NCBI GenBank assembly: GCA_951804945.1
Contig: OX638153.1
Location: forward strand, 43,834,001 to 43,898,000
Length of the DNA: 64,000 nucleotides
Reading direction: 5' to 3'
Source: Podarcis cretensis
Taxonomy: Eukaryota
How positions within the stretch are numbered: position 1 is the first letter of the stretch; each line of letters starts with the position of its first letter. Below are positions 3,944 to 53,299 of this stretch, piece by piece. The position numbers and the translations under genes were made by a program. Under the pieces are notes generated by a model that did not search any database, was not told the origin of the DNA, and saw only the letters and a list, made by a program, of their open reading frames with translations.

Positions 3944-4165
3944 GTAAAGTAAAGGGACCCCTGACTATTAGGTCCAGTTACAGACGACTCTGGGGTTGCG
4001 GCGCTCATCTCGCTTTACTGGCCGAGGGAGCCGGCGTACAGATTCCGGGTCATGTGGCCAGCATGACTAAGCCGCTTCTGGCAAACCGCACGGAAACTCT
4101 GTTTACCTTCCCGCCAGAGTGGTCCCTATTTATCCACTTGCACTTTGATGTGTGTTCGAACTGCT
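3944..4165 (-). mobile_element. Sauria SINE, 5'-truncated
   Basis: gtaaagtaaagggacccctg tail, ggttgcggcgctcatctcgc and ggtcatgtggccagcatgac cores, shared with the other copies in the window. Confidence 0.9.
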
Positions 4166-5458: not shown

Positions 5459-5945
5459 GGAATTTGTACACCACAGTCAGAAAAAGTGGTGCAGTGCTGT
5501 TTTCCCTAATTGCTTTGCTCTTTTAAGCCCCATTGCAACAAGCCAAGATTTCCTTTAGGTTTGAGCAGAGCAAAGTCTAAGTGATGGGATCAGGTAAGCT
5601 CCTCTACCACCAACAAAAGTAAGACATTCATTTCCATGTTATGCCAGCAAGAAGGTAGCAGCTCCCTAAGTATGAAGATGTTTCTGTTGCCTGGGAAACT
5701 TCCCCCTTTTGTCTGCAGTATTACAAATGACATATTGTGTATATTTGTCTTCAGTTACAAGATTATCATGTTGCCTATATACTGTATGCCGTAACTGAAG
5801 GAGGAACCCTTCCAGAGTGAAATCCACTCAAAAATGTAGTGTAATAGTAAGTACATAAATAAAAAAAATGTTATTAGAAGATCAGGCATGGCAACAGATA
5901 TGTAAGCCGAAGGACTGGCTAATTTGAAAGGAAATGTTAATTCTT

Positions 5946-6054
5946 AAGGAGGTTGGATGGCCGTCCATCATGGATGCTTTAGCTGAGATTCCTGCATTTC
6001 AGGGGGTTGGACTAGATGACCCTTGGGGTCCCTTCCAATTCTACAATTCTATTA
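5946..6054 (+). mobile_element. CR1 LINE 3' end, interrupted in its tail by the Chapaev element
   Basis: attcctgcatttcagggggttggactagatgacccttggggtcccttccaattctacaattcta is a CR1 3'UTR hairpin plus the ATTCTRTG-type tail. Confidence 0.85.
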
Positions 6055-6179
6055 CACTGGTCAACAACAAATTTGTTGTCTGTGTTTTTTCAGTTGATTT
6101 AGGATGAATCTGATGTGCTGAATCCAAAAATCACATTGGTTTTGCTGAATCAGGTCAAGTTTTTGAGCTATGGCCACAT

Positions 6180-6420
6180 GCCAGTGTGGTGTAGTGGTTA
6201 AGAGTGGTAGTCTCGTAATCTGGGGAACCGGGTTCGTGTCTCCGCTCCTCCACCTGCAGCTGCTGGGTGACCTTGGGCCAGTCACACTTCTTTGAAGTCT
6301 CTCAGCCCCACTCACCTCACAGAGTGTTTGTTGTGGGGGAGGAAGGGAAAGGAGAATGTTAGCCGCTTTGAGACTCCTTAGGGTAGTGATAAAGCGGGAT
6401 ATCAAATCCAAACTCTTCTT
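6180..6420 (+). mobile_element. tRNA-derived CORE-type SINE (Squam3-like) nested in the Chapaev element
   Basis: A box tggtgtagtgg, B-box-like ggttcgtgtc, CORE-like gggtgaccttgggccagtcac, L2-like 3' end and (CTT) tail. Confidence 0.8.
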
Positions 6421-6622
6421 TTTACGTTTTTGTTCACATGTACGCTTGTGTGGAGCATTTTAGTTGGTGGGGATAAAATGCCATGTCGAATAATTGTTTT
6501 GATTGGAAATGATTATTTTAATGACAAGAAGTATTCAGGTCGGATAGTTCTGGGTGATTATGTCGAAAAGGGATCAGTTTGAAGTCATAAAACCTCGAAA
6601 TCTTCCATAAATTGGCGCGGCT

Positions 6623-7983
6623 GGGATCAACAGAAAGAACCAGAGCAGCCTCAAGTATCCTGATCTTCAATCAGCATGTCGTCCTGTAGCTCATTGTGAT
6701 GAAATTCCAGTGCCTATCTTCGGAGAACTTCCTCACATTAGTGACGAAATGCCTCCAGTGTTGAAGGACATGAAGAAGAAGAAGTGGTTCTTGAAGATGA
6801 TGCTCCACATCCATTTTCCCAAAAGGAGTTGAATGATCTAGTTCATGACCTCAGCTTGTCAAAGAACTCTGCCGAACTGTTGGCATCCAGACTGAAGGAA
6901 AAAAACCTCCTCTCTGACAGTGCTTGCATCAGCTTCTTCCGCAACAGGCATCAAGAGTACCTCTGTTTTGTCTCGGAAGAGAAGGACTTGGTGTACTGTG
7001 CAGATATTGTGCAGCTTCTGCTCAAGCTTGGAGTGCCACAGTACAAACTGAAAGATTGGAGACTGTTCATTGACAGCAGCAAGCGATCACTGAAATGTGT
7101 TCTGCTACACAACGGTAACCAGTTTGCCTCTATACCCCTGGGTCACTCGAGTACACTGAAGGAGAACTATGAAGCGGTGAAGTATGTGCTGGAGAAAATT
7201 GGTTATGATCAGCATAAGTGGTTTATTTGTGTTGACCTGAAGATGGTGAACTTTTTGTTGAGACAACAGTCTGGCTTCACCAAGTACCCATGTTTTCTGT
7301 GCATGTGGGATAGTAGGGACCGTGCTCAGCATTACACGAAGAAGGACTGGCCTGTGCGGGAGGAATTGGTGCCTTGCAAATAAAGGAATGTCATCAACAA
7401 CCCTCTGGTAGACAGAGACAGAATACTCTTCCCACCGTTGCACATCAAGCTCGGCTTAATCAAGCAGTTCACCAAGGCTCTGGACAAGGATGGTGACTGC
7501 TTCACTTACTTGTGCCAGGCTTTTCCAGGATTGACCATGGAGAAGTTGAAAGCTGGCATCTTTGACAGTCCTCAGATCCGTCAGCTCATCAGAGATCCAG
7601 AGTTCGGAAAGTCAATGAACGAAGTGGAACTGGAAGCGTGGAAGGCATTTGTTCTGGTAGTGAATAACTTTCTTGGCAACAATAAGGCCAGAAACTATGC
7701 AGAACTTGTCAACAACATGCTGACTGCTTTCAGAAACCTGGGCTGCAACATGAGCGTCAAGATGCACTGCCTATTTTCACATATGAACCGGTTTCCTGAG
7801 AACCTGGGTTCAATGAGTGATGAGCAGGGGGAGAGATTCCATCAGGACATGAAAGAGATGGAGACCAGGTATCAGGGGAGCTGGGACACAGTCATGATGG
7901 CTGACTACTGTTGGACTCTGAAGAGAGACCTCCCTGCCGCTGAGCATTCCAGGAGTTCCAAGAAATGAAAGTTCAAGCCCTGA
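6623..7983 (+). pseudogene. Chapaev3-like transposase pseudogene (N-terminus deleted)
   Basis: Reads GINRKNQSSLKYPDLQSACRPVAH from 6623, with a frameshift near 6749. ORFs 6784..7383 and 7438..7968 are in the same frame, separated by one TAA. Motifs: WRLFIDSS, CVDLKM, KYPCFLCMWDSR, PPLHIKLGL, SDEQGERFHQD, MADYCW. The TGA at 7966 interrupts a KK(R)KFKP end. Confidence 0.85.
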
Positions 7984-8030
7984 AGTTTGAAAAATGGTGA
8001 AGCAACATGCAATTTACGTGTACTTACCTT

Positions 8031-8368
8031 AGTGCCTAGGACTTGCCAATCGCATGGTTGGCAGTTCGAATCCCCGCGGCGGGGTGAGTTCCCATCTTTC
8101 GGTCCCAGCTCCTGCCCACCTAGCAGTTCGAAAGCACCCCTAAGTGCAAGTAGATAAATAGGTACCGCTTTATAGCGGGAAGGTAAACGGCGTTTCCGTG
8201 TGCTGCACTGATGCTGGCTCGCCAGAGCAGCTTCGTCACGCTGGCCACGTGACCCAGAAGTGTCTCCGGACAGCGCTGGCCCCCAGCCTCGTAAGTGAGA
8301 TGGGCGCACAACCCTAGAGTCGGACACAACTGGCCCATACGGGCAGGGGTACCTTTACCTTTACCTTT
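8031..8368 (+). mobile_element. Sauria SINE, slightly 5'-truncated, nested in the Chapaev element
   Basis: gttcgaatcc B box, Sauria body and (ACCTTT)n tail; flanked by ttacctt at 8024-8030 and 8369-8375. Confidence 0.9.
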
Positions 8369-8724
8369 TTACCTTTATCAATGCCCACCATTCAGTTTAC
8401 AGTAAACCTGACCTGGTGGAGAGAAACGGATGCCATTTCCTGATTCAGCAGTGCAAAAATACCCTAAATCAGTTGTAGAAATCTAGACAACATTCAAAAA
8501 GTAAAAAATTGTTGCCCAGTGTTATTCTTGGCTGTGAATGAAATGTTCACCACATAGGATTCACTAGACGCATCAATTCACCATATTGGGAAATCACCTT
8601 CTCCAAAAGCTAAGCCAACAGCAGCGCTCTCTGCTCACCCTCCAAACACCAACTTGATATACTTTTAAATGTCAAGCAAATTCTGACCTAAGTGACTCCT
8701 CAAAGGCTGAATGCTTGTTGTGTA

Positions 8725-8984
8725 CAGTGGTACCTCTGGATGCGAACGGGATCCGTTCTGGAGCCCCATCCGCATCCTGAAGCGAACGCAACATGTAACT
8801 GCACATCTCTGCGTGCACAAGTTGCGTTTCGCCGCTTCCGCGCATGCACGTGATGTCATTTTGAGCATCTGCGCATGTGCGAGTGGTGAAACTCGGAAGT
8901 AACGTGCTCCGTTACTTCCGGGTCGCCGCGGTCCGCAACCCGGAAATGCTTATCCTGAAGTGTATTCATCCCGAGGTATGACTG
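8725..8984. mobile_element. Tc1/mariner (pogo/Tigger-like) MITE
   Basis: TA|cagtggtacctc ... gaggtatgactg|TA termini with TA TSD; CpG-rich, partly palindromic interior. Confidence 0.85.
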
Positions 8985-9445
8985 TACCAGTTTTAATAGC
9001 AGTTGGGTTTAATAGCAGTTGGGTTATTGTGAGGATTCAGAATGGTGTTGTGGAAACTCAATCAAAATACGGTATCAGAGTGAGAGATGTCAGCTGACAT
9101 TCTGGACATTCCAGATATAGCAGCTGTCATTGTCCAAGGAGCAGCTGATACTTCTTTCTCCAAATAAAGGATGCAAAATGCTGCACTGCTCATAAAAATA
9201 GGCTAATATGTATTCTCCTGTGCATTGGAAGTTAAGGGTTGCATCTCTAGAAACTACCTTTCTGCAAAATACCAGGTACGTTGATGATGTGGTTGATTGT
9301 GTATCTCCACCCTTTGAAAATCCCTCTCATTATATATCAGACAAGCATCATCTCTATGGTCTTTTATGTGCTAGTTTCCACTTTCACCAAGACTTCTAAG
9401 TAGAGGCTGTTATCCCAGTTCGTATCTGCATTGGATTTGAAGTGG

Positions 9446-11893: not shown

Positions 11894-12269
11894 GTAAAAG
11901 ATAAAGGACCTCTGGACGGTTAAGTCCAGTCAAAGGTGACCATGGGGTTGCGGCGCTCATTTCGCTTTCAGGCCAACGGAGCTGGTGTTTGTCCCCAGTT
12001 TCCTGGGTCATGTGGCCAGCATGACTAAACTGCTACTGGCACATGGAGGACCGTGATGAGTGCCAGAGCGCACAGAAACAACATTTACCTTCCTGCCGCA
12101 GCAGTACCTATTTATCTACTTGTACTGGCATGCTTTCGAACTGCTAGGTTGGCAGAAGCTGGGACAGAGCAATGGGAGCTCACCCCATCGCGGGGATTCG
12201 AACAGCTGACCTTCCAATCAGCAAGCCCAAGAAGCTCGATGGTTTAGACCACAGCACCACCTGCGTCCC
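11894..12269 (-). mobile_element. Sauria SINE, full length
   Basis: The 5' end GGGACGC appears as gcgtccc at 12263-12269. Tail at 11894. TSD tcctttatag (11884-11893, 12286-12295). Confidence 0.92.
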
Positions 12270-20664: not shown

Positions 20665-21020
20665 GGGACGCGGGTGGCGCTGTGGGTTAAACCACAGAGC
20701 CTAGGACTTGCTGATCAGAAGGTTGGCGGTTCGAATCCCCGCGACAGGGTGAGCTCCTATTGCTCGGTCCCTGCTCCTGTCAACCTAGCAGTTCGAAAGC
20801 ATGTCAAAGTGCAAGTAGATAAATAGGTACCTTCTGGCAGGAAGGTAAACGGTGTTTCTGTGCGCTGCTCTGGTTCCCCAGAAGTGGCTTAGTCATGCTG
20901 GCCACATGACCTGGAAGCTGTATGCCAGCTCCCTCGGCCAATAAAGCGAGATGAGCGCCGCAACCCCAGAGTTGGTCACGACTGGACCTAATGGTCAGGG
21001 GTCCCTTTACCTTTACCTTT
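20665..21020 (+). mobile_element. Sauria SINE, full length
   Basis: Starts gggacgcgggtggcgctgtgg, B box ggttcgaatcc, ends gtccctttacctttaccttt. TSD cagtacaca (20652-20660, 21022-21030). Confidence 0.95.
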
Positions 21021-27791: not shown

Positions 27792-29288
27792 CTCTACAGG
27801 CTGCTTGAGAGATCAAGAGAACTTTGAGGAGAGACCCCACAGCTGGAAAGCCCATTAATCCACAGGAGCCACCCCACCCCCAATTGAAAGCACAGAACCA
27901 ATTGCTCGATTACTGTACTGTTGGATTTTTAGTAAAAATTCTGTCTGAACAGTTAGCCTCTAATACTTGCAATAATACCAGTGTGAATTTTTCATTCTAA
28001 ATTATGATCTTCTGGTGGACACGGAGGTCTGCAGACCCTGAAGCAATAAATAAGTTATTTAAGAACAATATACATGTTAAGAGCATTTGTTCAGGTATAG
28101 ATTGTAGCATTATTTTTTTTCCTTGGTGTCAATTATATATATATATATAAATTCTCTTCGTAAGACATATTTTACAAACATATGTAATATTCACGGAAAA
28201 CAGTATTTAAAAGTCTACAATCCTATACAATGTCATCAGCTCATATGCATGGTAAATATGCTAAACCCCTAAAGGAACAATGTTTCTGCATATGTAGGGA
28301 AGACACAATTGAAGATACACTACACATTATAGAATGAATGCAGAATGAATGCTTTTGTTTGAGTTCTTAAACAATATATGGATTTTGAGAGCGCTTCATA
28401 ACTACTGCTCAGTCGAGACAACTTTCCTACTTATAGGCCTTCTTTGCCTGCAGTGGCTGTCTATAAAATTATAGACGATCAATTGCAGTGTTGTGCTACC
28501 AAGATAATTTCCTATAATATTTAATGATTTTTGCACAGGTGTTTAGACTGAATAATCAGAAGTAGCTTAGGGGGGCTGTTGCTTGCTTTTGCCCTATGAA
28601 ACCCACTTGTACCCACATTGCAGATCTTCAAAACGCCTCTTTCAAATACAGTATTTTTAAAAAGTGTATGACCATGGAGTCTTTTTGTAACCACTACATT
28701 TATTCGTATGATTCTGCTCCTCCCTTACCTGGATGAAAAGGGCTTATTGTTTGCTCATTTTTCAAGTTACTAATGCTGAACAAGAGAACGAACAACAGAT
28801 TGGTTTTGTTGGCAGCAGGGTGTGTGCGTGTGTGTTTGGTTTTGTTGGCAGGAGCTGCAATAAATTCTTATCAAAATTTCTGCTGCTTTTACTTCATTGG
28901 GAACAGCAGGGAATTCCAGCAGGGCCAAAAAGGTTAGCCGTAAGGGATCAGGAAACTAATCTGCACTGGAGAGCCCTTCTCATCAGAGCTGGGCGATACG
29001 CTGCAAAACAAGTGAGCTTTGCAGTGATGCTGATAAACCACCATTTCTGTCATGTGGGAAAATTCGCAGTAGAAGTAATTAAAGCCCACTACCTCACAGT
29101 AGGAATTCAGCTCCACATCAAATATTTGCATAAACCTTCCTAGATGGAGATGTTCTCTAAAATAATTACTTGCCTGGCTGAAGACACACCCACACCCAGG
29201 CTACCTTCAGCAGTTCTGTATTAGCTAGATACCATCTGCTGGTGAAAGTATATGGAAAAAACCACAGGAAGAAAGAAACCATAGGAAG

Positions 29289-30368
29289 GATAAAGTGCGA
29301 GACTGGTTACATTACGCTCAGATTAAAGAAGTTTTTAAAAATGACAAAAAGTTAGGGTTCCAGGTGGAGAAATCGAAGTTGGAAACAGAATTGTTAGAGC
29401 CAAAAACTAAGGTTTTATCAAGAATGTATAACTTGCTGCTGAAATGGAATACACAAGACGAAATGGTTAAATCGGTTATGATAAAGTGGGCTCAGGATAT
29501 TGGGCATAATATTATGTTTGAGGACTGGGAAAGGTTGTGGACCACTGGGCTGAACTTCACTGCATGTAATGCTTTGAAGGAAAATGTAATGAAAATGATG
29601 TATAGATGGTACATGACCCCAGTTAAACTTGCCAAAATATACCATTTGTCTGATAATAAATGTTGGAAATGTAAAGAACATGAAGGAACATTCTTTCACC
29701 TCTGGTGGACTTGCCCTAGAGTGAAGGCCTTCTGGGAAATGATTTATAATGAGTTGAAAAAGGTATTTAAGTATACCTTTACTAAGAAACCAGAGGCCTT
29801 CCTTCTGGGCATTGTCGGCCAGAAGGTGTTAAAGAAGGACCGAACATTTTTTATGTATGCAACAACGGCAGCAAGGATACTCATTGCCAAGAGCTGGAAA
29901 ACTCAAGATCTACCCACACTGGAAGAATGGCAGATGCAGCTGATGGACTATATGCAACTGGCCGAGATGACTGGCAGAATCCGAGACCTGGGAGAAGAGA
30001 GGGTTGAAGAAGACTGGAAGAAATTCAAGATTTATCTACAAAAGTATTGTAATTTGGTTGAATGCTAAGAAGGATGCTAGATCATAAATAATTGCCTACC
30101 ACTGAATTAGATTGAACCTGACGATAAGTGAGATTGAGGGAAACATAAAATTTGTGGAGAATAGATTAAATTAACTGAACAAAATTTAAGAATTTAAACA
30201 AGATGATAAATTGCTGGAAAAAATTTATAACGATGTAAGTGGGAGTGGGAGACGTGAGGGAGTCCAAAGAAGTTCTGAAAAATGTGTTCTGATCCATGCT
30301 ATATTGTTTATTATTTTTGCATTTTGTATTTTAAAAAAAAATCTCAATAAATATTTATATATAAAAAA
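29289..30368 (+). mobile_element. Young 5'-truncated L1-clade LINE
   Basis: Uninterrupted 257-aa ORF2 C-terminus (29295..30068) with the CCHC knuckle CWKC..GTFFHLWWTC, 3'UTR, aataaa and poly(A). TSD aaagaaaccataggaag (29272-29288, 30369-30385). Confidence 0.92.
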
Positions 30369-52938: not shown

Positions 52939-53299
52939 TAAAAAGGTAAAGGTACCCCTGCCCGTTTGGGCCAGTCTTGACAGACTCTGGGGTTGTGCGC
53001 CCATCTCACTTAAGAGGCCAGGGGCCAGCGCTGTCTGGAGACACTTCCGGGTCACGTGGCCAGCGTGACATCGCTGCTCTGGCGAGCCAGAGCCGCACAC
53101 GGAAACGCCGTTTACCTTCCCGCTGGTAAGCGGTCCCTATCTATCTACTTGCACCCGGAGGTGCTTTCGAACTGCTAGGTTGGCAGGCGCTGGGACCGAG
53201 CAGCGGGAGCGCACCCCGCCGCAGGGATTCGAACCGCCGACCTTTCGATCGGCAAGTCCTAGGCGCTGAGGCTTTAACCCACAGCGCCACCTGCGTCCC
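52939..53299 (-). mobile_element. Sauria SINE, full length, young
   Basis: CpG-rich, both ends intact; 15-bp TSD ttgtttttgttttag (52924-52938, 53302-53316). Confidence 0.95.

Follow-up and report, generated by a model that had tools for sequence, protein, structure and literature searches.

DNA transposons, Chapaev3 elements among them, are already known to have entered lizards by horizontal transfer, and the locus described here shows no new mechanism. According to the consulted part of PMC4079192, Chapaev3 transposons insert at A-TWA-T targets and duplicate the 3-bp TWA. Conan (Chapaev3-1_ET; tenrec and Anolis) resembles the present element in its Chapaev3 subgroup, its TWA duplication and its horizontal transfer into a lizard, and Merrow and Garfield resemble it in their C(2)C, LH and H(4)H motifs and their wide horizontal spread among vertebrates and arthropods (PMC4079192, in part). 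Chapaev3-1_AC and Chapaev3-2_AC of Anolis likewise share a lizard host, TWA targets and a length of 1.8–1.9 kb (PMC3014272, in part). The initial annotation pictured Chapaev3 as patchily distributed and mostly an invertebrate element; in squamates it is not rare, since in the 30 of 33 supplementary rows of PMC7070016 consulted Chapaev-3 is annotated in Anolis, six snakes, two turtles, frog and koala. The consulted text and supplements of that paper name no lacertid genus among those searched for.

Here, we describe a 64-kb stretch of DNA (the window) that contains a dead, N-terminally deleted Chapaev3 copy, one of an estimated few hundred, whose family very probably entered a lacertid-type lineage by horizontal transfer about 6–12 Myr ago. 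The structure and breaks of the copy, the secondary nature of its SINEs, its multi-copy state and the presence of near-identical elements in genomes without lizard repeats are shown by the data. Between 0.41 and 0.56 of 160 sampled 31-mers were found in 20 of 24 listed read runs (10 organism labels, 12 studies), shares that are inflated where the pool is multi-copy; runs X21 and X22 gave 0.00–0.01. The element was mapped in detail in four of the 20 holder runs: X23 and X15, of lizard type, and X7 (organism D) and X10 (organism F), of non-lizard type.

The element spans positions 6055–8521 with exact boundaries and a TTA on each side, in the arrangement A-TTA, element, TTA-T. Its termini follow the pattern CAC..GTG, with CAGTG closing the 3' end at 8521 (Table 1). 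The TIRs are imperfect, with 12 matches in the first 13 bases, and a weaker inverted similarity extends over about 110 bp; the earlier claim that both TIRs and the TTA duplication are intact is thus borne out, with this one mismatch. Subtraction of both SINEs leaves 1884 bp. Across the whole window, TWA-CACTG occurs six times and CAGTG-TWA once, at the end of this element. The same pair of termini is present in metagenome relatives (the 5' end in L003 and L007, the 3' end in L010). The ends and the target duplication are Chapaev3 hallmarks in the consulted part of PMC4079192 and, together with the C(2)C, LH and H(4)H motifs, all fit the Chapaev3 type proposed initially. The 5' non-coding segment 6419–6620 has no match among 79 metagenome loci; it is assigned to the family because X7 and X10 cover it too.

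Table 1. Features of the Chapaev3 element and its immediate surroundings (window coordinates)
Feature	Position	Strand	Basis
Abundant lizard repeat, with the insertion in its tail	5942..6051	+	Depth ~14,700 in X23; edge depth only in X7/X10
Left target-site duplication TTA, preceded by A	6052..6054	+	Sequence; target rule of PMC4079192 (in part)
5' end: TIR, reading CACTGGTCAACAA from 6055, and subterminal region	6055..6180	+	76–85% like relatives' 5' ends
Squam3B SINE, 238 bp, short CTT tail	6181..6418	+	By-eye match to Squam3B consensus, PMC7983390 supplement (in part)
Remaining 5' non-coding region, up to deletion junction near 6620–6622	6419..6620	+	Family-own: depth in X7, X10
Chapaev3 transposase remnant, ~residues 100–556 of full-length relatives	6611..7983	+	Homology
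5'-truncated Squam1/Sauria-type SINE, ACCTTT tail, in 3' non-coding region	8024..8368	+	Edges known to within 7 bases
3' subterminal region and TIR, reverse complement starting CACTGGGCAACAA	8369..8521	+	Termini; relatives' 3' ends
Right target-site duplication TTA, followed by T	8522..8524	+	Sequence

The transposase homology amounts to about 457 codons and contains one frameshift (a 1-nt loss at 6748, where an extra G is present in 155 of 232 X23 reads) and two premature stops, TAA at 7381–7383 and TGA at 7966–7968, the latter five codons ahead of the native stop (7981–7983). These values agree with the approximately 450 codons, one frameshift and two nonsense changes first reported. Every core motif is retained (FIDSS starting at 7066, CVDLK at 7228, CFLC at 7291, PPLHIKLG at 7432, H(4)H at 7765 and DEQGERFHQ at 7819), with the stop at 7381 preceding LH, H(4)H and the last acidic motif. 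By-eye comparison with the Garfield_BM translation shows C(2)C, LH and H(4)H in a DDE core; Pfam returned no family for three window pieces or for the relative P0123, and a PDB search gave no match. Full-length relatives comprise 556–560 aa, and the window matches them from about residue 100 onward. Residues 1–99 of the 556-aa relatives have no match anywhere in the window, and similarity to the metagenome loci at the DNA level starts again at 6621. With this part missing, one frameshift and two stops, the copy is a non-autonomous derivative with an N-terminal deletion and not merely a lightly decayed autonomous element. The description 'lightly decayed' in the initial annotation therefore stands as to the few lesions and falls as to an autonomous-like state, the loss of ~100 N-terminal codons having been overlooked.

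The deletion is likely to be common to other lizard copies, because its junction is covered at 6616 by 27 X15 contigs and ~57 X23 reads (~50 at 6642) and the proteins P0001 and P0131 begin just past it, at the first possible start codon. X7 and X10 contigs across 6616 stop within 6 bases; there is a weak hint that the copies in these runs are without this junction. The frame of P0001 and P0131, open over 424 aa with all catalytic motifs, might be taken for a shortened protein that was once functional or domesticated. This is highly unlikely: the frame starts at a GTG call and is without the N-terminal Cys-rich part, and the window copy has a stop ahead of the last catalytic motif together with neutral-looking changes. 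In X23, most organism-A copies seem to have another 5' structure that starts near 6700 (~50 reads at 6642 and ~340 at 6734). Indels are shared among organism-A copies in the X23 reads (145 of 246 at 6772, 65 of 217 at 6918, 171 of 388 at 7473 and 154 of 297 at 7508), and P0125, P0134, P0348 and P0350 end or start where organism-A frameshifts predict; defective sub-lineages are likely to have multiplied in trans. Separately, the metagenome loci L003 and L006–L009 (87% identity) have unrelated DNA where the initial ~77 transposase codons would stand, and they have one left flank in common.

The SINE-less joint 6180>6419 is present in all four runs and the joint 8023>8369 is listed in three of them (X23, X7 and X10). 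Reads or contigs of other copies thus join across both inserts and both SINEs arrived after the element, which settles as secondary the two SINEs noted inside it earlier. An empty-site joint was not found among the best 15 of 2069 joints. Beyond what its ACCTTT tail indicates, we take the second insert to be a member of the Squam1/Sauria family; four further Squam1-type copies lie in the window at 3944–4165, 12003–12231, 20696–21020 and 52942–53271. The repeat to the left of the element is presumably a CR1-like 3' end. From 8725 onward the window reads TA and then CAGTGGTACCTC, where a repeat begins that is abundant in the lizard and resembles a Tc1/mariner-type MITE, and a 279-codon open frame at 29229–30065 (+), with no Pfam match, is presumably a LINE ORF2 tail. 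An ACCTTT tail is described for Squam1 in the consulted part of PMC10058329. Squam3B is restricted to geckos and Lacertoidea and is youngest in lacertids (PMC7983390, in part). A lacertid host is therefore likely, in line with the lizard proposed from the outset.

The 31-mer shares by label are 0.45 for D, 0.42 for F, 0.56 for lizard A and 0.55 for lizard G. X7 and X10 have depth on the two ends of the element, on its 5' non-coding part and across its coding part, but a depth of 0 at 6284–6397 and 8108–8335 (the SINE cores) and at 8564–9000, and on the left repeat they have edge depth only; X23 depth reaches 26,000 and 80,000 on the SINEs. The D and F genomes are therefore without these lacertid repeats yet carry the element. 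At the left TIR, 56–57 X10 contigs have loose ends that differ from one another, which indicates many insertion sites in F. Of 33 listed differing positions (from a longer table with 359 further rows), 26 differ from the window in all four runs, five in D/F only and one in the lizards only, and one is mixed. We infer that the lizard and D/F source elements are 97–99% identical; the 87%-identical metagenome loci each hold at most 1.5% of the element's 31-mers and 3% jointly. The identity between hosts is thus far above that expected from host divergence, non-coding parts included. The D/F copies are more decayed, as their longest pieces differ by 9–14% from the window. Depth in X7 and X10 over 6398–6625 and 7424–8030 is 10–30 times that over 6626–7195, which suggests that copies with internal deletions are abundant in D and F. 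C>T and G>A changes dominate in these runs (96 of 170 and 86 of 153 places), as in methylated DNA.

Contamination of runs or assemblies is an extremely unlikely source of the cross-species match. Filtering can leave holes in contig depth, but lizard DNA would bring its SINEs, which in X23 are 60–200 times deeper than the element, and D and F show none; lizard contamination of X7 and X10 is thereby excluded. D and F also have five fixed differences of their own. On the lizard side, lizard SINEs sit inside the copy and a contig of organism G matches the left flank of the copy without a difference over 389 bp, and the locus of the prawn protein XP_064120350 sits on a 106-Mb scaffold.

P0001 has the lizard states. 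Its identity is 97% to the intact 556-aa proteins P0123 and P0128, 94.3% to XP_064120350 of the prawn Macrobrachium nipponense (over 244 aa) and 91.7% to a protein of Lates japonicus (over 314 aa). Identities are 89.8% for Pycnogonum litorale, 77–87% for Helobdella and 83% for a firefly, but only 61% for the amphisbaenian Rhineura floridana; amphisbaenians are the closest relatives of lacertids. The tree of 49 rows, obtained by a quick search with SH-aLRT and without bootstrap from database proteins rather than named Repbase Chapaev3 transposases, groups the window and the prawn protein in a clade of 14 rows (SH-aLRT 99); Rhineura lies far away. This quick tree is incongruent with the host tree, and the transposase tree proposed as a check in the initial annotation thus speaks for transfer. 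The 79 metagenome loci were considered as members of the same family and rejected: the best is only 87% identical and they represent different families. Between the window and the eight closest of these loci (87%), dN/dS is 0.10–0.20. A search for longer proteins gave 34 matches, the best with 83% identity over 35% of the query, and no close fused form. Viral contigs gave three pattern matches, none confirmed, and no evidence of a viral vector. The fish gene models P0151, P0333, P0334, P0361 and P0419, named NACHT/LRR/PYD, are or include transposase pieces; they are likely to be annotation chimeras or insertions in NLR clusters.

These data also bear on vertical inheritance within squamates, in which the family would still be active, D and F would be other squamates such as snakes and the likeness would reflect slow, constrained evolution. 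The Chapaev-3 annotations in Anolis, six snakes and two turtles (PMC7070016, 30 of 33 rows) would suit it, lacertid SINEs may drop below the 85% threshold in other squamates (PMC10058329, in part) and the dN/dS of 0.1–0.2 does reflect constraint. It is nevertheless very unlikely. The lizard and D/F elements have their non-coding ends in common as well, D and F are also without the CR1-like tail outside the element edge, and a prawn protein at 94% identity is set against an amphisbaenian element at 61%. The Anolis families have other ends and are 12–35% diverged (PMC3014272, in part). Even if D and F were squamates, elements so alike in different squamate families would suggest separate invasions.

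The mean X23 depth over the coding part is 395, against 1.2–1.4 expected for a single copy, and corresponds to ~290–330 copies for a genome taken to be 1.4–1.6 Gb, a figure that comes from a single Hi-C run; the same calculation gives ~80–90 copies of the 5' part. For Squam3B, the same depth sum gives 19,000–22,000 copies, within the published 16,000–92,000 for lacertids (PMC7983390, in part). Organism A may be of another species than the window, because X23 depth on the flanks of the element is just 0–0.27. The count of copies and divergence across squamates advised earlier is thus available as a copy number for one lizard run. The copy differs from P0001 in 21 of 412 codons. The best-supported private changes listed comprise 14 that alter the amino acid and six silent ones (seven of the 20 of CpG type) and fit neutral decay, as expected. 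Selection between hosts, seen in the low dN/dS among relatives, and neutrality within one host is the usual transposase pattern. The word shares of 0.55–0.56 under the lizard labels imply ~1.9% divergence. With the Podarcis rate of 1.98e-9 per site per year (PMC8760935, in part) as the single rate and P0001 as a proxy for the source element, ~2% decay would place the insertion at roughly 10–12 Myr, or ~6–8 Myr without CpG changes. This estimate (6–12 Myr) is younger than the Lacertini crown, dated at 37.6 Ma with a published range of 15–47 (PMC6733905, in part).

Recent horizontal arrival, as initially proposed, is upheld by the D/F runs, the 94.3% identity to the prawn protein, the incongruent tree and the ~2% decay. 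In the history that we propose, a full-length 556-aa transposase of the family would have arrived from another animal and a derivative would have lost ~100 N-terminal codons, the Cys-rich part, while keeping both ends. This derivative would have been moved in trans into an A-TTA-T site within the repeat tail, and the inserted copy would then have decayed neutrally and taken two SINEs. More tentatively, the family may have swept within ~10 Myr through crustaceans, at least two other unrelated hosts and more than one lacertid lineage after the genus split, with mainly deleted derivatives in lizards and the intact 556-aa form elsewhere. The family is young (~2% decay) and has intact relatives at 97%, which makes donor and route traceable, and its insertions would be usable as dated presence/absence markers for lacertid genera.

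It is possible, if somewhat doubtful, that the transfer is real and the family is already catalogued in Repbase, Dfam or an automatic library. PMC12400950 (in part) screened both Zootoca vivipara and M. nipponense and counts 256 class 2 transfers for Zootoca, which may include this family; a phrase search for the Zootoca–Macrobrachium pair in the consulted part of its table gave no match, for which the format is possibly responsible. Against this, the termini are unlike those of Conan, Merrow, Garfield and the four Anolis families (PMC4079192 and PMC3014272, in part), and titles and abstract openings, with most subscription journals outside the search, contain no report of the family in lacertids. 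Prior cataloguing would touch novelty only and is therefore compatible with horizontal transfer. By published termini, with Repbase and Dfam outside the comparison, the family is apparently distinct from the named Chapaev3 families and would be a fourth, apparently unnamed one among known horizontal transfers into vertebrates.

The closest elements are those behind XP_064120350, P0122, P0123 and P0128, which form one clade with the window (SH-aLRT 99) and are 94–97% identical to P0001; none of these four records describes a transposon family. All of these keep the N-terminal part (556–560 aa, although the gene model of the prawn breaks off at 383 aa), whereas the window copy is without it. Merrow and Garfield differ in their TIRs (CACTGTGTAAC and CACGACTCTAC) and two-exon transposases and are unreported from lacertids in the consulted part of PMC4079192; identity with either was rejected, their termini being absent from the window element. 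Identity with any of the four Anolis families was rejected on their other ends and 12–35% divergence; Chapaev3-1_AC and Chapaev3-2_AC have the TIRs CACTGRWAAACA and CACTAGGAAACAC and copies diverged by 11–20%, against ~2% for the window copy (PMC3014272, in part). Conan was suspected from its size, Conan_ET having 1,865 bp and 461 aa and the window element 1,884 bp without SINEs and ~457 codons. It was rejected by a comparison of ends alone (PMC4079192, supplement fig. S6, in part): Conan starts CACAGCCCAAC and finishes GTGTTGGCCAGTG, whereas the window element starts CACTGGTCAACAAC and finishes TTGTTGCCCAGTG, and the Anolis Conan copies are older than the window copy. Chapaev3-1_AC (1,910 bp, 485 aa; PMC3014272, in part) is also near the SINE-less element in size. 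By this size likeness to Conan_ET and Chapaev3-1_AC, N-terminal loss may be recurrent in vertebrate Chapaev3 bursts.
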